A stretch of 64,000 nucleotides of DNA from Gemmatimonadota bacterium. GTDB lineage: Bacteria > Gemmatimonadota > Gemmatimonadetes > Gemmatimonadales > GWC2-71-9. A program made the position numbers and the translations under genes. This document shows positions 10,785-40,935 of this stretch, one piece after another. Location: assembly GCA_031375485.1 (NCBI GenBank), contig JANMHX010000316.1, forward strand, positions 8,186 to 72,185, written 5' to 3'. Under the pieces are notes generated by a model. That model did not search any database, was not told where the DNA came from, and saw nothing but the letters and a program-made list of their open reading frames with translations. Within the stretch, counting starts at the first letter, position 1. The number at the start of each line of letters is the position of its first letter.

Positions 10785-13072
10785 GATGCCGCCCCGACTC
10801 GAAACCGCTCGACCATCTGGACCAAGACCCGGATATCGAAGGGTTTCTGCAGGTGGGGGGTCTTCAGGCGGGCCAGAAACTCCGCCACCGTCGGCGACGC
10901 CGTATCGCCCGTGATGACGACGGTTCGATCGGCCAAATCAGGATGGGTGGCCCGCAAGCGATCGACGAGTTCGATGCCCGAAAGCCCCGGCATCCGAAGG
11001 TCGGTGATCACGGCCTGATAGGGCCCGGGCCGGCCACCGACGTCCAACCGAAGCCAACCTTCCTGGCCGTCCGCAGCCTCGTCCACCTGCCAGCCGTGGC
11101 GCTCGAGGCTCCGGCGTACCGCCGCCCGAATCGCGGCTTCGTCGTCGACGACCAACGCCCGGCCCGCCGGAGCGGGAGACCCGTCGTGGCCAAGGCGGGG
11201 ACCCGCGCCGTCCCCCGCCATCGGCGGGTCGATCCGGCGCTCGACGAACGGAAGGGCCACCGTGAATCGAGCGCCGCGGCCCGGCAGATTCTCGGCCGAG
11301 ATGTCGCCGCCATGCTGGTGGACGATCGCATGCGACACCGACAGCCCGAGGCCGGTGCCTTCGCCCAATCCCTTGGTCGTGAAGAATGGCTCGAACAGGC
11401 GCGGCAACGCCTCGGGAGAAATGCCGGCGCCGTCGTCGTCGATCTGGAACACCAAACGGTTATCCCGGACCATGATATCCAGGGTCACCACACCCGCCGG
11501 CGCCACCGCCTGGAATGCGTTGGTCAGCAAGTTGGTCAAGACCTGTTCGATGCCCGGCCCATCGGCTTCGAGCGCGGGGAGATCGGGTGCCAGCGTCACC
11601 GAGAACGACACATTGTGGTGGGCCGAGTCGCGGTCGAACACCCGGACGACCCGACCCACCAACTCCGCCGCGGTCGTCCGGCGCCGTTCTTCCCGGCGGG
11701 TCCGCGCAAAAATCAGCAAATCACCGACGATGATCCGGCACCGTTCGGCCTGCTGGACGATGACCGACAGGGCTTCGCGATCCTCCTCGTTCCGGGCCGA
11801 GCCGAGGAGGTCTTGCCCGAAACCCATGATGGCCGTGAGCGGATTGTTGAGCTCGTGGGCAACCCCGGATACCATCCGGCCCACGGCTTCGAGCCGCGCC
11901 GCCTGGGCGAGTTGAGCCTGCAGTTGAGCCTGCTCGCCGTGCGACCGAATCTGATCGGTCAGGTCCCGAAGGACCAGCACGAACCCGCGGGCCGAGCTAT
12001 CCCCGAACGACGACACCGACAGTTCGAGCGGGAACTCGTCACCGTTGGCCCGGAGGCCGATCACGTCACGGCGCAGGGCAACCGGCGGATTCGCCTCCGA
12101 CCGCCGCGTAGTGGCGGCCAGGGCGGCCCACAACGGGTCGCGCTGATCCGGACGAAGGAACCGGTCGAACAGTTCGCCCCGGCAATCCTCGACCAGACCC
12201 AACATCGTCTCGGCCGCTCGGTTGACCAGTCCGATCCGCCGGTCGCCTCCCAGGGTCACGATCCCCTCGTGCGCCGCCCGGAGCACTTCCGCCAACCGGG
12301 CCTCGGCGGTCGTGGCCGCCACGATCCGGACCTGCTGGGCCCGCGCGGCCTCGCGATGGTCGTCCTCGACCAGGGTGAGCGCCATGCCCACCCCCAGGAC
12401 GACCACTTGTCCCGCATCGAGATACGAGTTGTAGGCGGCCATCCATTTGAGCAACTCCTGCCAGGCGGTCGTCGCCGGTTGCCCGGCTCCCGCAAAGGCC
12501 AGGGTATACAAGCTCCACTGCGCCGCCAAGATGACCAACGCGATCCGGAGGATCTGAATCCCGAGCCGCCGGGTCGACGGTTGGGGACGGACCCACCAGG
12601 CCGAGACCGCGAACAACGGCGCCGCGACGGCGGCTTGAAGCACCACCAAGGCATTGAGATCGATCGTCACCAGCACCGGAATGGTACCGAGCAGAGCCGC
12701 CACTCCGGCCACCACCAACCGGGACCGCCGGATCTCGAAGCCCCGGCCGACATAGGCCAGAACGCCCAGCAAGAGAAAGCCAAGGAACAAGAACTTGGCT
12801 GATTGGTAGATCGCATAGAAGGGAGCCAACAGCACCCCGGTGAGCGGCTTCACCGCCGCTGGAGCCACCACGGGAATGAGGTTGTACCGGACGGCCATCG
12901 TGGCCAACGCAAAGGACAACGCGACCCACGCCCATGACCAATGAATGAAATAGGGCCGGGGCGTGGTCTCCCGGCGGAGCCCGAGGACCAAGGTGGTGAA
13001 CAGCAGACACGCCGCCAGTTCGACCAGAATGCCGATGAGCGAAATCGTCTGTGCCGCGGTGGGTTCAGGCAT
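10781..13072 (-). CDS. Hybrid sensor histidine kinase (multi-TM N-terminus, PAS, HisKA, HATPase, REC)
   Basis: VAHELNNPL H-box, NLLTNA, DDGAGI, FFTTKGLGEGTGLGL, REC VVDDE...TDLRMPG; PAS LVNRAAETMLG; start MPEPTAAQ. Confidence 0.9.
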   Translation of the reverse strand: MPEPTAAQTISLIGILVELAACLLFTTLVLGLRRETTPRPYFIHWSWAWVALSFALATMAVRYNLIPVVAPAAVKPLTGVLLAPFYAIYQSAKFLFLGFLLLGVLAYVGRGFEIRRSRLVVAGVAALLGTIPVLVTIDLNALVVLQAAVAAPLFAVSAWWVRPQPSTRRLGIQILRIALVILAAQWSLYTLAFAGAGQPATTAWQELLKWMAAYNSYLDAGQVVVLGVGMALTLVEDDHREAARAQQVRIVAATTAEARLAEVLRAAHEGIVTLGGDRRIGLVNRAAETMLGLVEDCRGELFDRFLRPDQRDPLWAALAATTRRSEANPPVALRRDVIGLRANGDEFPLELSVSSFGDSSARGFVLVLRDLTDQIRSHGEQAQLQAQLAQAARLEAVGRMVSGVAHELNNPLTAIMGFGQDLLGSARNEEDREALSVIVQQAERCRIIVGDLLIFARTRREERRRTTAAELVGRVVRVFDRDSAHHNVSFSVTLAPDLPALEADGPGIEQVLTNLLTNAFQAVAPAGVVTLDIMVRDNRLVFQIDDDGAGISPEALPRLFEPFFTTKGLGEGTGLGLSVSHAIVHQHGGDISAENLPGRGARFTVALPFVERRIDPPMAGDGAGPRLGHDGSPAPAGRALVVDDEAAIRAAVRRSLERHGWQVDEAADGQEGWLRLDVGGRPGPYQAVITDLRMPGLSGIELVDRLRATHPDLADRTVVITGDTASPTVAEFLARLKTPHLQKPFDIRVLVQMVERFRVGAAS

Positions 13073-32848: not shown

Positions 32849-33826
32849 CTATGGGATCAACACGATCTTCCCGTAGGCCCGGGCCCCCATGATGACTTCG
32901 TGGGCCCGGGGCGCCTCGGCCAACGGCAACTCTTGGCCGATGACCGGGACGAGGGCCCGCTGCTCGAGACCGGCGCTGATGTCGGCGTACACCGTGGCGA
33001 GCTGCTCGGGACCAACCCCCCACAGGAACACGCCGGTCACGGTCAGATCCTTCGCCATGATCTTCCGGGGATCGATCTCGATCCGCCCCCGGTTTCCGAT
33101 CACGACAATCCTGCCTCGCGGGGCCACCAGGTCGAAATCATGATCCAGGTTTTCGTTGGCCAGCATTTCGAGCACCACGTCCGGGCCCCGGCCGTTGTTG
33201 GCGGCCGCTTTGATCTGGTCGAGATACAACGCTTCCCGGTGCCCGACGGCAAAGTGCGCTCCATTGGCCCGCACCAATTCGAGGCCGTCAGGGCTCCCCG
33301 CCGTACCGATCACCTTGAGACCCTTCCAACGGGCCAACTGCAGGGCCGCGGTGCCGACCCCGCCGCTCGCGCCGTGAACCAGGACGATTTCACCCGGTTG
33401 GGCCGCCGCCTTCAGGAACAGCCCGACGTAGGCGGTGGCATAGGGAACCCCTAACGCCGCGCCCTCGGAGAACCCGACATGGGCCGGCAACCGGTACACT
33501 TGATGCGCTTCGCACACGGCCATCTCGGCGTAGGACCCGCCGGTCTGGCCCGCGGCCGTGCCGTGAAAGAAGACCCGGTCGCCGGCCTTCCACGGATTGG
33601 GTCCGTCGCCCACCCCGACAATCACGCCGGCGCCGTCCGAACCCGGCGTGTACGGCAACGTGGGCAGAGCGCCGTAGCGGCCGCTTCGGATGTAAGTCTC
33701 CACCGGGTTGACGCCCGCGGCGTGGACTTTGACCAGGACCTGCCCGGGCCTGGGGACCGGAACGGAAACCTCTTCCACCACCATGACCGATGGATCGCCA
33801 AACCCGTGAACTCTGATCGCCCGCAT
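32849..33826 (-). CDS. qor: NADPH:quinone oxidoreductase (zeta-crystallin/MDR)
   Basis: AAGVNPVE, YTPGSDGAG, VHGASGGVG, GKIVL. Confidence 0.9.
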   Translation of the reverse strand: MRAIRVHGFGDPSVMVVEEVSVPVPRPGQVLVKVHAAGVNPVETYIRSGRYGALPTLPYTPGSDGAGVIVGVGDGPNPWKAGDRVFFHGTAAGQTGGSYAEMAVCEAHQVYRLPAHVGFSEGAALGVPYATAYVGLFLKAAAQPGEIVLVHGASGGVGTAALQLARWKGLKVIGTAGSPDGLELVRANGAHFAVGHREALYLDQIKAAANNGRGPDVVLEMLANENLDHDFDLVAPRGRIVVIGNRGRIEIDPRKIMAKDLTVTGVFLWGVGPEQLATVYADISAGLEQRALVPVIGQELPLAEAPRAHEVIMGARAYGKIVLIP

Positions 33827-33838
33827 GGTGAGCCGCTC

Positions 33839-34606
33839 CTATCGGTTGCCCTGCCGTAAGTACTGATCGCTGCCGGTAGCCCAATCGTCTCGCCGAGGGC
33901 CAAAGAGGTCCGTGGCCTCGGTTTCCTCGATGGCCTCCGCCATGTGCGGGGCTTGGGACGGGATCCGAATCACCGACCCGGCCGGGACCTCGAACGGCTG
34001 GCCGGCGACCGTCAAGCGAAGGTGACCCCGACGAACCCACGTCAGTTGCTCGCTCTCGTGTTGATGGGTCGGCACGATGGCGCCCTGGCGGAGCAGGAAG
34101 TTGCAAACCGTAGCCCGCTCGCCGGACACGAACGCCCGGTCGATCAACGGCGTCAGCGGTTCCTTCGGAACCTCCGCCCACTGCACCAGTCGCGCCGGGT
34201 TGTCCTCGGTGGCCGGATTCTCGAACCCCGATGGCTGGGAGGGCTGGTTCGTGAAGTACGAGTCCGATCGGTCGAGCCAGTCGTGCCGGATCGGGCTGAA
34301 GACATCCATTTCATAGGTGTCCTCCAGCGCCACCGCCTCATGGGCAACCCACGACGGGATCACCAGCATCTGGCCGGGGCCCACGACGATGGACTGGCCG
34401 TTGATGATGAACTTGAGGGCGCCGGAGAACACCAGGGAATGCTGCTCGGCCTCGTGTTTGTGATAGGGGACGACGCAGCCCTTCTTGAGTCGGATGTGAC
34501 CCGCCATCACCTTGTCGCCGGTGATGACTTGACGGGAAATCATGTCGGTAACGGCTTCGGTCGGAACATCAGTCCAGCGGAACAGCCGGGTAGTGCCGAG
34601 ATCCAT
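33839..34606 (-). CDS. Tandem double cupin protein (KdgF-like halves)
   Basis: HKHEAEQ..H..DVFSPIRHDW and HQHESEQ..H..DLFGPRRDDW. Confidence 0.82.
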   Translation of the reverse strand: MDLGTTRLFRWTDVPTEAVTDMISRQVITGDKVMAGHIRLKKGCVVPYHKHEAEQHSLVFSGALKFIINGQSIVVGPGQMLVIPSWVAHEAVALEDTYEMDVFSPIRHDWLDRSDSYFTNQPSQPSGFENPATEDNPARLVQWAEVPKEPLTPLIDRAFVSGERATVCNFLLRQGAIVPTHQHESEQLTWVRRGHLRLTVAGQPFEVPAGSVIRIPSQAPHMAEAIEETEATDLFGPRRDDWATGSDQYLRQGNR

Positions 34607-34732: not shown

Positions 34733-35692
34733 ATGTTGACACTCACGCTCGACGATTTTCGGCAAGCCCGCACCCGGATCGCCCCCCACATCCACCACAC
34801 GCCGTTGTTACGAAGCCGTCAGCTGTCGGAGCTGACCGGCTTCGACATCCGGCTCAAGGCCGAGATGTTCCAGCGGGTCGGTTCTTACAAGTTCCGCGGA
34901 CCCTTGAACCGGTTCACGTTCCTGACCGAGGAAGAGAAACGCCGCGGCGTGGTCTGCTCGTCGGCCGGCAATCATGCCCAAGGTGTTGCCTTGGCCGCCC
35001 GGATTCACGGCATCCGCGCCGTCGTTTGTATGGCCGAGAACGCCACCCCCGCCAAGATCGCCGCCACCCGGGGGTACGGCGCGGAGGTCGTGCTCCACGG
35101 CCGAATCTGGGACGAGGCCAACGAGCGCGCTAAAGAGTTGGTGCGCTCCGAGGGCTTGGTCTACATCAGCCCGTTCGATGACCCCAATCTGATCGCCGGC
35201 CAGGGTACCTTGGGTCTCGAGATCGTCGAGGACTGGCCCGAGGTGGACGCCGTCATCGTTCCGATCGGGGGCGGCGGGCTGATCTCCGGGGTGTCCATGG
35301 CGGTGAATAGCCACAATCCGGCCGCCCGGGTCATCGGCGTCGAGTCGTCCGACGGGCCGGCCATGAAGGAAAGCCTCGCGGCGGGCCGGGTCACCACCAT
35401 CGATTGCCGGACCATCATCGACGGCCTCCGCGTCAAAACGGTCGGTGATCTCACGTTCTCGGTCTGCCAGCGGTTCGTCGATGAGATCGTGACGTTGCCC
35501 GACCGCGAGATCTTCGAGGCCGTCCTCTGGATCATGGAACGTTGCAAACTCGTGCCGGAGGCCGCGGCCGCCGCCCCGGTGGCCGCCCTCCTCAAGGACC
35601 TCGTTCATCTCGCTCCCGGCTCCAAAGTCGTCTGCGTCCTGAGCGGCGGGAACCTCAACCTCGATCAACTCCGGGGATTATCATGGAATTGA
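34733..35692 (+). CDS. Ser/Thr dehydratase family PLP enzyme, third paralog
   Basis: KAEMFQRVGSYKFRGP (atypical), SAGNHAQG, PIGGGGLISG, VLSGGN; TATCAT 7 nt before ATG. Confidence 0.9.
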   Translation: MLTLTLDDFRQARTRIAPHIHHTPLLRSRQLSELTGFDIRLKAEMFQRVGSYKFRGPLNRFTFLTEEEKRRGVVCSSAGNHAQGVALAARIHGIRAVVCMAENATPAKIAATRGYGAEVVLHGRIWDEANERAKELVRSEGLVYISPFDDPNLIAGQGTLGLEIVEDWPEVDAVIVPIGGGGLISGVSMAVNSHNPAARVIGVESSDGPAMKESLAAGRVTTIDCRTIIDGLRVKTVGDLTFSVCQRFVDEIVTLPDREIFEAVLWIMERCKLVPEAAAAAPVAALLKDLVHLAPGSKVVCVLSGGNLNLDQLRGLSWN

Positions 35693-37305
35693 AGTGTGCC
35701 ACCGCGCTCCTCGCCCTGGTCGTGATCACCGCGCCCGCCGAGGCGCAAACCTACGACGTCGTCATTCACGGCGGGCGGATCGTCGACGGCACCGGCGCCC
35801 CCTGGTACCAAGGCGATGTCGGCATCAAGGACGGCAAGATCGTGGCGATCGGCCGGCTGAATCCCGCCGCCGCCCGCCGGGCCATCGACGCCTCCGGGAA
35901 GGTGGTGACCCCGGGCTTCATCGATATGATGGGACAGACGGCGGCGCCCTTTATCCGGGACCCCGCCACCGCGTTCAATCTGCTGAGCCAGGGCATCACC
36001 ACCCTCAACGCCGGTGAAGGCGGCAGCGACGCCCCGCTGGCCGGCAAGGAGGCCGCCGACCGGGGCTGGAGTACGACGCGCGAATTCTTCACGAAACTCG
36101 AACAGGCCGGCATGCCGATGAATATGGTCCAGACCGTGGGCCATACCCAAATCCGGGAAATCGTCATCGGAGACAAAGACCGCCAGGCCACCCCCGCGGA
36201 GCTGGAACGGATGCGGGGCTATGTCCGCGAGGCCATGGAAGCCGGAGCCATCGGGGTGTCGACCTCGTTGATTTATCCGCCCGCCATCTACGCCTCCGAG
36301 GAGGAGATCGCCGAGCTGACCAAAGTGGCCGGGACCTACGGCGGCCGCTACTTCACCCACATGCGGAACGAGGGCGACCGGCTCCTCGAAGCCATCGACG
36401 AGGCCCTCCGGATCGGCAAGACGGCCGGCACCCCGGTCCACATCTATCACCTGAAGACCGCCGGCCAGGCCAATTGGGGCAAGATGGACCAGGCCCTCGC
36501 CCGGATCAAAGCCGCCCGAGCCGCCGGCCAGCAAGTGGCGGTCGATGTCTATCCCTACATCAACAACGGGCTCGGCATCCGGGCCCTGCTCCATCCGCGG
36601 CATGCCGCCGAGGGTCAGGACGCTCTCCTGGCCAAGCTCGACAACCCGGCCACCCGGGCCGAGATGCGGCGGGAAATGGAGTCGCTCGGTGGATGGGAGA
36701 ACTGGTTTGCCCACGCCGGGAAGGACTGGGACCGGATCGTGGTGGCCGGATTGGGGAAGACCGCGTATGCCCAGTACAACGGACAGACCGTGGGCGCCAT
36801 TGCCCTGGCCACCAAGAAAGACCCGTGGGACATCTTCTTCGAAATCGCCAAATTCGAGGTCTTCGCGATGCCGCAGAGCATGTCGGAAGCCAACAAGATG
36901 AAGGCGATGCGGGAAGAGTTCACCTCCTTCGACACCGATGCCGGGCCGGCCGCGACCGGATACGCCGTCCACCCCCGGGGATTCGGGGCGTTTCCGCGAA
37001 TCTTCTCCCGGTATGTCCGCGACCTCGGCGTCCTGTCGCTCGAGGCCGCCGTGCAGCGGGCCACCGCCGGAGCGGCCAACGAGATCATGGCGTATGACCG
37101 GGGCCGGATCGCCATCGGACTCGCCGCTGACATCGTGGTGTTCGACCCGGCAACCATTCGGGACCGGGCCACCTTCGCCGAGCCGATGGTGGCCTCGGAG
37201 GGAATCAGCCAGGTGCTGGTGAACGGGCAAGTGGTGCTGGAGAATGGGAAATACACCGGCGCCAAGCCCGGCCGGGTTCTTCGGGGCCCGGGATACCGGC
37301 CCTGA
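35683..37305 (+). CDS. Exported D-aminoacylase-like amidohydrolase with altered metal site
   Basis: Signal ..APAEAQ; PGFIDMMGQ (no HxH), YFTHMRNE, HIYHLK, HPRGFGAFPR; overlaps dehydratase stop by 10 nt. Confidence 0.85.
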   Translation: MELKCATALLALVVITAPAEAQTYDVVIHGGRIVDGTGAPWYQGDVGIKDGKIVAIGRLNPAAARRAIDASGKVVTPGFIDMMGQTAAPFIRDPATAFNLLSQGITTLNAGEGGSDAPLAGKEAADRGWSTTREFFTKLEQAGMPMNMVQTVGHTQIREIVIGDKDRQATPAELERMRGYVREAMEAGAIGVSTSLIYPPAIYASEEEIAELTKVAGTYGGRYFTHMRNEGDRLLEAIDEALRIGKTAGTPVHIYHLKTAGQANWGKMDQALARIKAARAAGQQVAVDVYPYINNGLGIRALLHPRHAAEGQDALLAKLDNPATRAEMRREMESLGGWENWFAHAGKDWDRIVVAGLGKTAYAQYNGQTVGAIALATKKDPWDIFFEIAKFEVFAMPQSMSEANKMKAMREEFTSFDTDAGPAATGYAVHPRGFGAFPRIFSRYVRDLGVLSLEAAVQRATAGAANEIMAYDRGRIAIGLAADIVVFDPATIRDRATFAEPMVASEGISQVLVNGQVVLENGKYTGAKPGRVLRGPGYRP

Positions 37306-37324: not shown

Positions 37325-38638
37325 ATGCTGATGACCTCCCGCCGGAGCCTGCTCGCCGCCGGAGCCGCCGTCGTCGGCCTCCCCGCGTGGCTCCGCGCCG
37401 AGGTGTTCGGCCGCCGGCCGTGGACCGCGCGCCCCTATCTCGACCTGGCGCTCCGCACGGCGCGCTGGATCGAAGCGAGCCGCCAAGAGACGGCCGACGG
37501 CATTCGGTACCCGGCCGATCCCCTCAAGCCTGAATCGGTCGGGCTCGACTTCTACAACGGGATGCCGGGCATCGTGGCGTTCTACGCCGCGCTCCATCAC
37601 GCCACCCGAGACCCAGCCTGGCTGGCCGCCGCGGAGGCCGGGGGCCGGTACCTCCTGCATGCGGTGGCCACCGAAGGCGACCAACTCGACGGCGGACTCT
37701 ACACCGGTCTGGCCGGCATCAGCTATAGCCTGAATTGCCTCCACCGCGGCACCTCGAACCCCAAGTGGGGCGCCGAGGCCCGGCGCCTGATCGAGCCCGT
37801 GGGAGCCCGCGCGGAGACGACGGATTCGTGGGACATCATCAGCGGTCTCGCCGGGACCGGGCTCTTCCTGCTCTCGACCGGATCAGTCGACCTGGCCACC
37901 AAAGCCGGCCACCGATTGCTCGCCGCGGGCGAACCGGCCGAGGGCGGCATGATGTGGTTTCCCGGTGGCTCGTTGCGAAGGAACTATCCGAATTTCTCCC
38001 ACGGCACGGCGGGTGTCTCGTATTTCTTGGCGTCGCTCTATCGCCAAACCAAGGAACCAGCGTTCCTCGACGCCGCCCGGAAAGGGGCCGCGTACCTCGA
38101 GGCCGTCGCCACCACCCGGGACGGCGCCACCCGGATTTTCCATCAAAGCGGCGGCGAAGACCGGTACTACCTCAGTTGGTGTCATGGACCGGTGGGGACG
38201 GCCCGGTTGTTCTATCGACTCCACCAGATCACCGGCGAGCCGCGGTGGTCGGCCTGGGTCGACTCACTGACCCGCGGCGTGGTCGACAGCGGCGTGCCCG
38301 AGCAACGGACCACCGGGTATTGGAACAACGTCAGCCAATGCTGCGGCAACGTCGGGATCGGACAGTACACGATCGACCTGGCTCGGTACCGGCAATCGAA
38401 GGCGGACCCGGCGTATCAACGACGAATCATTGACGACACCACCCGCCGGGCCACCGACGACGAGGCCGGTCTCCGGTGGGCGCAAGCCGAGAACCGAACC
38501 CAACCGGACAACGTCGTGGCGCAGACCGGGTTCATGCAGGGGGCCGCGGGAATCGGGACGTTTCTTCTCCAACTAGACGCCCTCGAGCAGGGAGTCCGGT
38601 GGGCCTTTCCGTTACCAGACACCCCGTTCGCCGGATAG
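37325..38638 (+). CDS. Stand-alone lanthionine synthetase C-like (LanCL) protein with Tat signal
   Basis: SRRSLL Tat motif; repeated GxxG helices (YNGMPG, YTGLAG, ISGLAG, SHGTAG, WCHGPVG, QCCGNVG, MQGAAG). Confidence 0.88.
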   Translation: MLMTSRRSLLAAGAAVVGLPAWLRAEVFGRRPWTARPYLDLALRTARWIEASRQETADGIRYPADPLKPESVGLDFYNGMPGIVAFYAALHHATRDPAWLAAAEAGGRYLLHAVATEGDQLDGGLYTGLAGISYSLNCLHRGTSNPKWGAEARRLIEPVGARAETTDSWDIISGLAGTGLFLLSTGSVDLATKAGHRLLAAGEPAEGGMMWFPGGSLRRNYPNFSHGTAGVSYFLASLYRQTKEPAFLDAARKGAAYLEAVATTRDGATRIFHQSGGEDRYYLSWCHGPVGTARLFYRLHQITGEPRWSAWVDSLTRGVVDSGVPEQRTTGYWNNVSQCCGNVGIGQYTIDLARYRQSKADPAYQRRIIDDTTRRATDDEAGLRWAQAENRTQPDNVVAQTGFMQGAAGIGTFLLQLDALEQGVRWAFPLPDTPFAG

Positions 38639-38666: not shown

Positions 38667-40859
38667 TTAGAACTCGGTCCGAATCGTCACGATCACGCTG
38701 CGGCGTGATTCCGGCCTGAAGAACGAGGTGTTTGACGCCTCGGCGTAGAGCGCATTGGTCAAGTTCGCGACCGCCACGCCGAGAGACGGGTTCATGCCGC
38801 CCAACCGGCCCAGTCGAAACTCGCCCCGGGCGGTGTGCACCGTGAAGGCCGGCAACCGGTCCCCAACGGGATTGGCAACGAGAACCAGATCCTTCCGTTC
38901 CCCCTGGTGGCGCACCTCATAGCCGACGAACAGGCGGCCCTTCGGGTCACGCCACGAGACCTGCCCCCCCACCTTGCTGCCGTAACTGTCACCGACCGGA
39001 ATGTTGGTGTCGGGATTCTTGGAAGTCAGTTTCGTGGCGTGGCCAAGCACCTCGAACCCGTGAGCCAACCGCACCTCAGCCAGCGCTTCAAACCCGCGAT
39101 CCCGCAGCCGCTGGATGTTCTGGTTCTGGAACGCCGGGAAGTTTCTGATCTTGGTACCGAGTGGCACGATCCGGATGCCGTCGGTAATCGTGTTGGAGAA
39201 ATACATCAGTTCCCCGTACCAGCGGTCGGTTCGAATCTTGACCCCGAAATCGATGTTCAAGCTGGTTTCGGGAGTCAGGTTCCGATTGGCCGTCAGGTAC
39301 CCGTTACCCTCGGCGGTCACGCCGTCGAAGTACCGCTCAACGAGGTTGGGCGCCCGGAACGCCCGGCCTGCCGTCGCCACCAGATTGATCCGGTCCGTCA
39401 CCGCATATTGACCGCTGATCCCGCCCACCAAGGTTTGATTGCTGGCGGAAATGCCCCCGCGGCTCCGGGCGAGCCCCGGTGTCTGGCGGGTTTCCGACCC
39501 GATGGCCTGGCCCCGAAGACCCAGGCCCAAGGTGAAGCGGTCGTGGAGCCGGAGTTCAGCTTGGGTAAAAAGACCGGTGCTCCAGGCATTGGCGTTCGGA
39601 ATGGTCGGGGCAGTGGTTGACCGGACCCGGGGCGGGCCGAACCCGTTGGTGGTCGTCGTGCTCGAATCCGTGTTCGTCGATCGGTCGAGGTACCAGTCGA
39701 CGCCGTAGGTCAGGGTATGGCGGCCGCCGAATACCTTCGCGGCCTCGAGTCGCGCCCCGACGGTGTTGATATCGGTGATGTTCCGGCTCCGAATCGCCAA
39801 TCCGGCGGTGGGCGGGAGCGGGGCACCGAACGGAATGTCGATCTCCTGCTCGAAGATTCGGTGATTGGCGGTTCGGTAGATCGTGGCCGAGAAGCGGTCC
39901 GCCACGGGGGAGCCTAACGCCACGGCACGATAGCCCGCAGTGATCCGCGTCACGCCTTGGTCGGGATACAGCAGGCGAACCTTCACCCCGGACGTGTCAC
40001 CGAGCACCGGCCCGTCGACGTAGCCGAATCCCGCATCGCGGGCATCGTACCGGGACACCCGGAGGGTCACTTGGTGCCGGTCGGACACGTCGTAACTCGC
40101 ACTGGCGGAGTAGGTCTGATCGGTGACACCGGTATCGTTGACCTTGGCGTCCTGCGGCAGACTGAGGCGGCCGAATCGACCGGCCGGGGCCAGGTACGCA
40201 TCGGCACTTCGGTAGCCGGCGCCGAACAGGAATCCAAGCTTCCCGGTCCGGCCGCTCGTGAGCGCGTGGATCAGGTTCTGCCCGTCGGCAGAGCTCCGGC
40301 GATACAGCACCGAACCCCGAATGCCGGTCTGACCGGCACCGGGCGGCCGCAGGGTGATTTGATTGACGATGCCCCCAATCGCGTCGGTGCCGTAGAGGAC
40401 GGACGCCGGGCCCCGGACGATCTCGACCTGGCTGATCCCGTTGATATCGGTGAACGCCGGGAGCTCGCCGAAATCCTGCTGACGGCGGGAGTTGTTGAGA
40501 CGGATGCCGTCCTCGGCCAAGAGGATCCGTTGCCCGCGTTGACCCCGGATGGCCAAACGGGTCTGGTTCGGGCCGACCCCGGTGACGTCAACACCGGGGA
40601 GGTTTCGGAACAAGTCGCCGACACCGTTGGGAGCCTCGCGGCGCACCACCCCAGAATCGATCACCAACACGGGGTTCGCCGTCATGAACACCGGCCGGGC
40701 CTGCCGGGTGGCGGTCACCGTAATCGGAGCCAGCTTGGTCAGCCCCCGAACTGGGGTCGGCTTGGCGGCGGAAGAATCGGATTGTTGGGCAGTCAGCCCG
40801 ATCGGGTATCCGCAGGCAACGAGCGCCGCAGCGGTCGAGAGGAAACGAAGAGTCGGCAT
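38667..40859 (-). CDS. TonB-dependent receptor, heme/hemoglobin receptor-like
   Basis: Plug IRGQRGQRILLAEDG, EIVRGPASVLYGTDAIGG, FRAPN / NRNLTPE motifs, C-terminal Phe. Confidence 0.85.
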   Translation of the reverse strand: MPTLRFLSTAAALVACGYPIGLTAQQSDSSAAKPTPVRGLTKLAPITVTATRQARPVFMTANPVLVIDSGVVRREAPNGVGDLFRNLPGVDVTGVGPNQTRLAIRGQRGQRILLAEDGIRLNNSRRQQDFGELPAFTDINGISQVEIVRGPASVLYGTDAIGGIVNQITLRPPGAGQTGIRGSVLYRRSSADGQNLIHALTSGRTGKLGFLFGAGYRSADAYLAPAGRFGRLSLPQDAKVNDTGVTDQTYSASASYDVSDRHQVTLRVSRYDARDAGFGYVDGPVLGDTSGVKVRLLYPDQGVTRITAGYRAVALGSPVADRFSATIYRTANHRIFEQEIDIPFGAPLPPTAGLAIRSRNITDINTVGARLEAAKVFGGRHTLTYGVDWYLDRSTNTDSSTTTTNGFGPPRVRSTTAPTIPNANAWSTGLFTQAELRLHDRFTLGLGLRGQAIGSETRQTPGLARSRGGISASNQTLVGGISGQYAVTDRINLVATAGRAFRAPNLVERYFDGVTAEGNGYLTANRNLTPETSLNIDFGVKIRTDRWYGELMYFSNTITDGIRIVPLGTKIRNFPAFQNQNIQRLRDRGFEALAEVRLAHGFEVLGHATKLTSKNPDTNIPVGDSYGSKVGGQVSWRDPKGRLFVGYEVRHQGERKDLVLVANPVGDRLPAFTVHTARGEFRLGRLGGMNPSLGVAVANLTNALYAEASNTSFFRPESRRSVIVTIRTEF

Positions 40860-40935
40860 GGCCCCAATTTGGCGGAGCAACTCGGGGTCTGGACACCGAA
40901 AGGCTACGGTGAGAACCGCCCCGTATTTCTACGGG

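Follow-up and report, generated by a model that had tools for sequence, protein, structure and literature searches.

The stretch of DNA considered here, called the window in the following, comprises 64,000 nucleotides of contig JANMHX010000316.1 from the Gemmatimonadota bacterium assembly GCA_031375485.1 and encodes on its plus strand a LanC-like protein of 437 residues that is predicted to be exported. Its intact open reading frame runs from an ATG at 37325 to a TAG stop codon at 38636-38638 and forms the last of three closely spaced genes, following those of a pyridoxal phosphate (PLP)-dependent ammonia-lyase and a metallo-amidohydrolase (Table 1). A longer reading frame opens at an alternative ATG at 37244, but we favour the start at 37325 because homologues begin at the M..RR position. 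A preliminary description of the locus had treated the gene as an isolated orphan, a view that had to be given up, as the gene ends a tight three-gene unit and is one member of a family that spans about 600 clusters and has a near-invariant CCG motif.

Table 1. Coordinates of the LanC-like gene, its sequence motifs and the adjoining genes in the window.
Feature	Position	Strand	Remarks
LanC-like gene	37325..38638	+	third gene of the unit; 437 aa; LANC_like 131 bits; AlphaFold2 model; Foldseek matches
Twin-arginine signal peptide, MLMTSRRSLLAAGAAVVGLPAWLRA before EV	37325..37399	+	RR conserved among homologues; TatC in genome
SHGTAG, residues 225-230	37997..38014	+	H226, predicted active-site acid
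WCHG, residues 285-288	38177..38188	+	C286, predicted zinc ligand; H287, predicted enolate-stabilising residue
QCCG, residues 338-341	38336..38347	+	C339 and C340, predicted zinc ligands; C340 replaces the usual His
QAENR...AQTGFMQGAAG, family-specific block (E389, R391, Q400, Q405)	38483..38551	+	invariant in 23-member alignment
PLP-dependent threonine/serine ammonia-lyase, ilvA-like	34733..35692	+	first gene of the unit; 319 aa; cytoplasmic; PALP 284.6 bits
Amidohydro_3 metallo-amidohydrolase, D-aminoacylase-like	35683..37305	+	second gene of the unit; 540 aa; Amidohydro_3 77.7 bits
TonB-dependent receptor	38667..40880	-	Plug and TonB_dep_Rec_b-barrel; convergent neighbour
Cupin and PIG3-family NAD(P)H quinone oxidoreductase	32849..34606	-	diverge from the unit across a 126-nt spacer

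Domain assignment, catalytic residues and predicted export

The LanC-like identity rests on a match to the Pfam profile LANC_like (PF05147) with 131.1 bits (E 4.8e-38), and since this score compares with a cut-off of 23.2 and covers nearly the whole profile (positions 3-342 of 350), the assignment is not due to chance. Among NCBIfam models, those of LanM, LanL and LanKC rank highest, each through its cyclase part and all scoring far below their full-length cut-offs; the LanM model TIGR03897, for instance, reaches 149 bits against a cut-off of 304 and aligns only over model positions 584-930, which make up its C-terminal domain. The fused N-terminal DUF4135 region that marks class II LanM enzymes is missing from the 437-residue protein. 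When the protein is compared by BLASTP with a LanM from Gemmatimonadota, it aligns colinearly to the cyclase domain (25% identity, E 8e-12); SHG pairs with SHG and WCHG with WCHG, whereas CCG of the LanC-like protein faces CHG of the LanM. C340 would thus occupy the place of the zinc-ligand histidine.

What these residues may do can be read from the eukaryotic homologue LanCL1, in whose product complex zinc is held by Cys276, Cys322 and His323, while His219, the equivalent of His212 in NisC, acts as the acid protonating the enolate and His277, directly after the first zinc cysteine, serves as a hydrogen-bond donor to the carbonyl (PMC9934072). Directly after the first zinc cysteine, LanCL, ProcM and HalM2 have His where class I LanC has Tyr, and evidence that the LanC-type reaction is reversible is cited in the same work (PMC9934072). 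Mapped onto the LanC-like protein, these roles would fall to C286, C339 and C340 as zinc ligands, H226 as the acid and H287 as the carbonyl donor. The features that define the LanC superfamily are found together, with the predicted zinc-ligand triad in repeats 5 and 6, the acid histidine in repeat 4 and an enolate-stabilising residue. The cyclase version with three cysteines, termed CCC, has been named class IIa (PMC11251773), and the protein displays its signature, WCHG combined with CCG where CHG is usual. All elements for thia-Michael chemistry are present in this ProcM-like version, with zinc binding as a prediction.

The family adds a feature of its own in the QAENR...AQTGFMQGAAG block, for which no counterpart was seen in the alignments with LanM, NisC or LanCL, those with NisC and LanCL being fragmentary. 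We regard the block as a candidate substrate-binding element, and the conservation of E389, R391, Q400 and Q405 suggests that one defined co-substrate or substrate moiety is recognised. Because of the internal repeats, HMMER alignments to LanCL1, NisC and other PDB chains are out of register as well as fragmentary.

An AlphaFold2 model built on 23 homologues shows an alpha/alpha toroid (mean predicted local distance difference test score, pLDDT, 84.7; predicted template modelling score 0.85), in agreement with seven G-x-x-G helix-start motifs in the sequence, as expected for a seven-repeat alpha,alpha-toroid. When the model was compared with the PDB by Foldseek, the top 20 matches were all of LanC type, with template modelling scores (TM) of 0.57-0.67 and including MadC, NisC, CuvL, GCR2, LicM2, LanCL2, LanCL1 and ThurKC. 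GH76 mannanases and cellobiose epimerases rank lower (TM 0.42-0.52), and no GH127 structure appeared within the top 50 PDB matches.

The N-terminus carries the hallmarks of a substrate for twin-arginine translocation (Tat). SRRSLL at residues 5-10 (37337-37354) is followed by a hydrophobic core and an A-x-A-type site, LRA before EV, around residue 25, the sequence reading TSRRSLL...LRA and then EV. R6 and R7 are invariant among the 23 aligned homologues, and the RR motif occurs in 114 of 121 close homologues, the remaining seven being truncated gene calls. TatC is encoded in the same genome (204 bits). More distant family members begin with Tat-type, lipobox or Sec-like N-termini, which, along with the RR leaders, points to an extracytoplasmic family as a whole. 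We infer that the LanC-like protein is carried to the periplasm by the Tat pathway, a route that would suit a protein needing to fold and to take up zinc before it enters an oxidising compartment.

The preliminary description, which had proposed a LanC-like protein with a Tat-type leader and the motifs SHGTAG, WCHG and CCG, was accurate on these points: the three motifs lie at residues 225-230, 285-288 and within QCCG at 338-341, the profile search covers the full-length domain, and SRRSLL is backed by the conserved arginines and by TatC. It had named a glycoside-hydrolase or AGE-type barrel without bound zinc as the fold that would speak against it; the Foldseek comparison ranks LanC-type structures above such barrels, and the zinc site remains a predicted one.

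Compared with known systems, the protein is closest to the ProcM-type (class IIa) LanM domains, with which it shares the SHG acid, the WCHG histidine and the three cysteine ligands of the CCG site, and its best match among curated models is a LanM C-terminal domain. It differs from them in lacking a fused DUF4135, in being exported rather than cytoplasmic according to its leader, in having no precursors nearby and in its additional conserved QAENR and AQTGFMQG blocks; moreover, PMC11251773 lists class IIa examples from cyanobacteria, whereas the present family is found in soil Gemmatimonadota and Acidobacteriota. With the class I cyclases NisC and MadC it shares the stand-alone, single-domain architecture of about 420 residues and its best fold matches (8byk and 2g02, TM 0.58-0.65), at a sequence identity of only 13-18% in Foldseek. 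NisC differs by a Tyr after the zinc cysteine and a CHG motif (PMC9934072), and class I cyclases are always encoded in a cluster with LanB and a precursor and are cytoplasmic or membrane-associated, not Tat-exported. LanCL1 and LanCL2 likewise stand alone, outside natural-product synthesis, and have the WCHG histidine and a similar fold (TM 0.57-0.64), and like them the LanC-like protein presumably acts between molecules. They are cytosolic, however, and their zinc site is Cys-Cys-His, where the LanC-like protein has a Cys in place of the zinc histidine; sequence matches to them are weak (E 5e-5 to 0.01).

Glycosidases of family GH127 (HypBA1 type) belong to a related clan of helical-hairpin barrels, are extracytoplasmic and hold zinc in a Cys3-Glu site, two of whose cysteines are adjacent. 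Their barrel has six repeats instead of seven, and the LanC-like protein lacks the Glu-x-Cys motif while having the LanC histidines. The GH127 profile matches no more than residues 64-104 and, at 22.3 bits, stays below its cut-off of 24.9, and an identity with GH127 or another glycosidase, unsupported by either profile or fold, was rejected.

Family, gene neighbourhood and transfer

More than 2,881 relatives emerged from a word-indexed search, and its 120 best matches are nearly all stand-alone proteins of about 450 residues from Gemmatimonadales, Vicinamibacterales and Caulobacteraceae. In a profile search of 1.84 billion representatives, 607 clusters were recovered at E <= 1e-30, and with clusters defined at 50% identity the exported LanC-like family comprises about 600 of them. 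When each species was represented by one genome, relatives were present in 234 genomes, which belong to Gemmatimonadota, Acidobacteriota, Armatimonadota and a few Proteobacteria or are metagenome-assembled genomes (MAGs), some in number, labelled Clostridia. Within Gemmatimonadota the gene is present in 18 of 201 genomes and 9 of 98 genera. NCBI and JGI label these proteins as 'lanthionine synthetase LanC family' or 'lantibiotic modifying enzyme'.

In a 23-member alignment spanning 55-86% identity, H226, W285-C286-H287-G288, C339-C340-G341 and the family-specific block are invariant. Residue counts over 134 cluster representatives, pairwise at most 50% identical, give the same picture at greater depth, with H226 kept in 132, C286 in 133, H287 in 130, C339 in 131 and C340 in 130 of them; His takes the second position of the CCG motif just once. 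E389 is kept in 119, R391 in 120 and Q405 in 119. The three-cysteine CCG site is a nearly invariant hallmark of the family, as judged from these sequences, and since the catalytic histidines and zinc-ligand residues are near-invariant, catalysis has most likely been retained.

Some members have unusual architectures. Two family clusters bear C-terminal CARDB domains (representatives P0194, P0252, P0145 and P0208 were examined), and P0194 scores above the GH76, GH127 and GH88 cut-offs. Another representative, 1317 residues long, has an N-terminal region with an HZS_alpha middle domain, and one is joined to an alpha-L-fucosidase fragment; for all these extra domains, a true fusion and a gene-calling error are both possible. 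In a genome of the same genus (G197), a second, much weaker LanC-like match (173.7 bits; contig C18, 18243-19460), additional to the regular copy, lies inside an open frame of 820 residues.

In the window, the stop codon of the ammonia-lyase gene overlaps the ATG of the amidohydrolase gene by 10 nt, and 19 nt separate the latter from the LanC-like ATG, which argues for a single transcription unit. The ammonia-lyase scores 375 bits with TIGR01127 (cut-off 378.75) and is without the regulatory C-terminal domain. The amidohydrolase scores 219 bits with a PRK09061-type model, and its N-terminus, MELKCATALLALVVITAPAEA before Q, reads as a Sec signal; the genome holds seven amidohydrolase paralogues, this copy included. 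On the other side, the convergent TonB-dependent receptor gene ends 28 nt from the end of the LanC-like gene and encodes a protein resembling heme/hemoglobin receptors (TIGR01785, 234 bits against a cut-off of 317); it is kept beside the LanC-like gene only in the closest relatives, loci L009 and L011. The divergent cupin and PIG3 genes hold their position in most loci of the same clade, and the adjacency of PIG3, a Michael-acceptor reductase, and an enzyme of predicted Michael addition could be either fortuitous or meaningful. A scan for promoters and terminators gave nothing informative.

For related loci, neighbouring genes were called by a gene picker based on GC content at third codon positions, and Pfam tallies cover the nearest neighbours only. 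The order ammonia-lyase, amidohydrolase and LanC-like gene recurs in 16 of 80 related loci and further loci keep one of the two neighbours; all are from Gemmatimonadota, with LanC-like identities of 50-87%, and an ilvA-like ammonia-lyase gene stands upstream in about 19 loci. In a maximum-likelihood tree, the loci bearing the unit fall within one well-supported clade of 30, and nested in this clade are seven Acidobacteriota and two Proteobacteria copies with neither neighbour, from which it follows that the LanC-like gene crossed phyla alone. A second group, which lacks the amidohydrolase, is made up of the remaining 50 loci. True amidohydrolase orthologues (76-81% identity) were found only in four genomes of the same genus, always adjoining the LanC-like gene. 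The amidohydrolase was consequently rejected as an obligatory partner: it is one of seven paralogues in the genome and has orthologues in the same genus only, it is absent from many genomes with the LanC-like gene, and the tree shows the latter moving alone.

Among nearest upstream neighbours, Amidohydro_3 accounts for 17 of 78, joined by a different Amidohydro_1 type, PALP and S9, M16 and DPPIV peptidases. Immediately downstream, a PLP decarboxylase gene follows in 6 of 74 loci, on the same strand and 0-84 nt away or overlapping by 28 nt; other downstream neighbours, out of the same 74, are MacB/FtsX permeases (6), fasciclin (4), Peptidase_M19 dipeptidase (3) and S8 peptidases. In Acidobacteriota loci an adjacent Aminotran_5 gene was seen, with Cys_Met_Meta_PP a few genes off and TonB receptors upstream. 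The short genes on either side of the Caulobacteraceae copy offered no clue. Exported peptide and amide hydrolases together with PLP-dependent amino-acid enzymes form a recurring theme of the neighbourhood in raw counts.

A few loci deserve separate mention. Two contigs of one Gemmatimonadaceae MAG (L061 and L063) each carry a LanC-like copy followed by a same-strand PLP decarboxylase gene and preceded by an ilvA-like gene, 77-78% identical; the ilvA-like and LanC-like genes of L061 are separated by a small gene on the minus strand. Compared with the window, the LanC-like protein of L028, L036, L037 and L050 has diverged far faster (50-54% identity) than the amidohydrolase (74-78%) and the ammonia-lyase (78-81%) of the unit.

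Lanthipeptide machinery and rival explanations

From about 27 to 47 kb of the window, no LanB, LanM, C39 or precursor-like gene was detected, which bears out the earlier statement that lanthipeptide machinery is absent nearby, and the LanB, precursor and transporter genes of a class I cluster are missing from the roughly 20 kb around the LanC-like gene. In the whole genome (5.36 Mb, 95% complete), the protein at 37325-38638 holds the single LANC_like domain. One marginal C39 match was found, on contig C5. LanB N- and C-domains gave no match genome-wide, a weak negative, because the control genomes did not respond either. The preliminary description had named a cognate LanB with a precursor elsewhere as a finding that would speak against it; a cognate LanM was not found, and LanB was not found in a search without a positive control.

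The genome does encode a lone DUF4135 protein (contig C73, about 11900-13024, plus strand; 374 aa, 160.9 bits) without a cyclase domain, flanked by an S8 peptidase, a Ser/Thr kinase-tetratricopeptide repeat protein, a Pyr4-like transmembrane terpene cyclase and a protein with an LLDDIVD motif. DUF4135 is the dehydratase core of LanM, and this protein may represent a use of the LanM kinase-like domain outside lanthipeptides. It could also be imagined as one half of a split lanthipeptide synthetase, dehydrating a precursor in the cytoplasm for cyclisation by the exported LanC-like protein afterwards, an idea favoured by the co-occurrence of the two in one genome and the adjoining S8 peptidase. 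The two genes lie on different contigs, however, and the C73 neighbours include a terpene cyclase and an undescribed protein instead of a precursor or transporter. Of the 201 genomes from the phylum, 5 have DUF4135, while the five genomes of the same genus that carry the LanC-like gene all lack it, and it overlaps with the LanC-like gene in just 3 of 18 genomes, two of which have full-length LanMs with their own CHG cyclase. On this phyletic pattern and the terpene-type neighbours we rejected the split LanM, and we rate such an arrangement as very improbable. The single LANC_like domain, the phyletic mismatch with DUF4135 and the solo transfer of the gene together argue for its independence from lanthipeptide synthesis.

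Three further explanations dispense with lanthipeptide synthesis as well. An activity of LanCL type, in which glutathione, cysteine or another exported small thiol is added to damage-derived dehydroalanine (Dha) or dehydrobutyrine (Dhb) in periplasmic or outer-membrane proteins and reactive electrophiles would thereby be removed, appears rather doubtful. The catalytic set is the same as in LanCL1, including the His after the first zinc cysteine, and a stand-alone, highly conserved protein is what would be expected with one fixed thiol co-substrate. LanCL1 contacts glutathione through Arg4, Lys317, Arg364, Asp367 and Glu374 (PMC9934072), and R384, E389 and R391 follow CCG at a spacing similar to that of Arg364, Asp367 and Glu374 after Cys322, a likeness in spacing only, as the glutathione-binding residues cannot be aligned. 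Against a general repair function also stand the patchy distribution of the gene and neighbours that point to the breakdown of peptides and amino acids, not to proteostasis. A zinc-thiolate enzyme acting on a carbohydrate or non-peptide electrophile, either as a GH127-like cysteine glycosidase or by adding thiols to unsaturated uronates or other Michael acceptors from TonB uptake, is improbable. The predicted periplasmic location, TonB receptors near several loci, weak local matches of the protein to GH127, GH76 and pectate lyase, the relatives above glycosidase cut-offs, the fucosidase-fragment fusion and the adjacent cysteines of GH127 are in its favour, yet the LANC_like score of 131 bits far exceeds the 22 bits of GH127, the GH127 match spans just one hairpin, which lies away from the zinc motifs, fold comparison ranks the glycosidases and epimerases below the LanC types, and seven repeats with the LanC-specific His226 and His287 are conserved. 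About as improbable is a non-catalytic or structural periplasmic protein, for example a zinc- or peptide-binding module on a LanC scaffold. Eukaryotic LanC-like proteins were for a long time described as binding proteins, and no substrate has been identified here; on the other hand, the near-invariance of the acid/base histidine, the enolate histidine and all three zinc ligands in a family of about 600 clusters speaks for preserved catalysis.

Proposed function and significance

We consider it likely that the protein is an exported LanC-type thiol or thioether enzyme unrelated to lanthipeptide synthesis, with zinc binding and export predicted from its motifs and leader. The enzyme would fold and probably be loaded with zinc before Tat-dependent export to the periplasm, where it would work alone, without a lanthipeptide dehydratase or precursor. 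There, the Zn(Cys)3 site formed by C286, C339 and C340 would bind and activate the sulfur of a thiol or thioether, polarisation of the carbonyl in an alpha,beta-unsaturated dehydro-amino-acid residue would fall to H287, and H226 would add or remove the alpha-proton. From the complete LanC catalytic set we would thus predict thia-Michael addition to dehydroalanine or dehydrobutyrine, or, in reverse, the opening of (methyl)lanthionine.

As to its substrates, peptides that are cross-linked by thioethers or contain dehydro-amino acids may be processed in the periplasm during peptide breakdown, with detoxification as a possible side benefit. Such a role is suggested by the apparent co-transcription with the amidohydrolase and ammonia-lyase genes in the window and by dipeptidases, peptidases and PLP enzymes elsewhere, and this context of amidohydrolases, peptidases and PLP enzymes in independent lineages lends modest backing to the scavenging or detoxification of thioethers. 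Taken as a whole, the picture of a Tat-exported zinc-thiolate enzyme that makes or opens peptide thioethers during peptide breakdown is, in our judgement, evenly balanced between right and wrong, whereas the specific assignment to periplasmic catabolism of thioether-linked or dehydro-amino-acid peptides can be put forward only tentatively. A still narrower version, in which thioether rings of lanthipeptides or other peptides with lanthionine from the environment are opened by a retro-Michael reaction so that periplasmic amidohydrolases and peptidases can digest these protease-resistant peptides, seems unlikely.

Several observations weigh against peptide catabolism or against the enzymatic assignment behind it. 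The strong conservation of the 23-member alignment is easier to reconcile with a single defined substrate than with a variety of foreign peptides, and some family members pass the cut-offs of glycosidase families from the same clan. Confidence in the model is lowest for the loops that carry the zinc motifs (pLDDT 53-71). There is no universal partner gene, and the link to the amidohydrolase, being limited to one clade, may reflect inherited gene order; likewise, the excess of peptidases among the neighbours is one of raw counts in phyla that are rich in such genes. Finally, no source of a periplasmic thiol or of dehydro-peptides was identified. Nothing in the evidence distinguishes between detoxification, scavenging and repair.

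Full-text searches of the literature turned up no work on a family of bacterial LanC-like proteins that is exported, Tat-dependent or orphan. In a large genome-mining survey with RODEO, LanC-like genes that had no dehydratase nearby were discarded as 'unclassified', so that this stand-alone group has remained unexamined. LanC chemistry is known from two settings, namely intracellular ring closure in lantibiotic synthesis and the addition of glutathione by eukaryotic LanCL proteins, and an exported bacterial family of about 600 clusters with the full catalytic set and a three-cysteine site, yet without dehydratase or precursor, would constitute a third. Its members could serve as leader-free tools for making or breaking peptide thioethers. 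If they do add thiols to external peptides or open their thioethers, this would bear on the turnover of protease-resistant lanthipeptides in soil and on the roles of bacterial LanC-like proteins outside biosynthesis. Should the ring-opening reading prove true, the family would provide the first dedicated route of lanthipeptide breakdown in Gram-negative soil bacteria and possibly a means of lantibiotic resistance.

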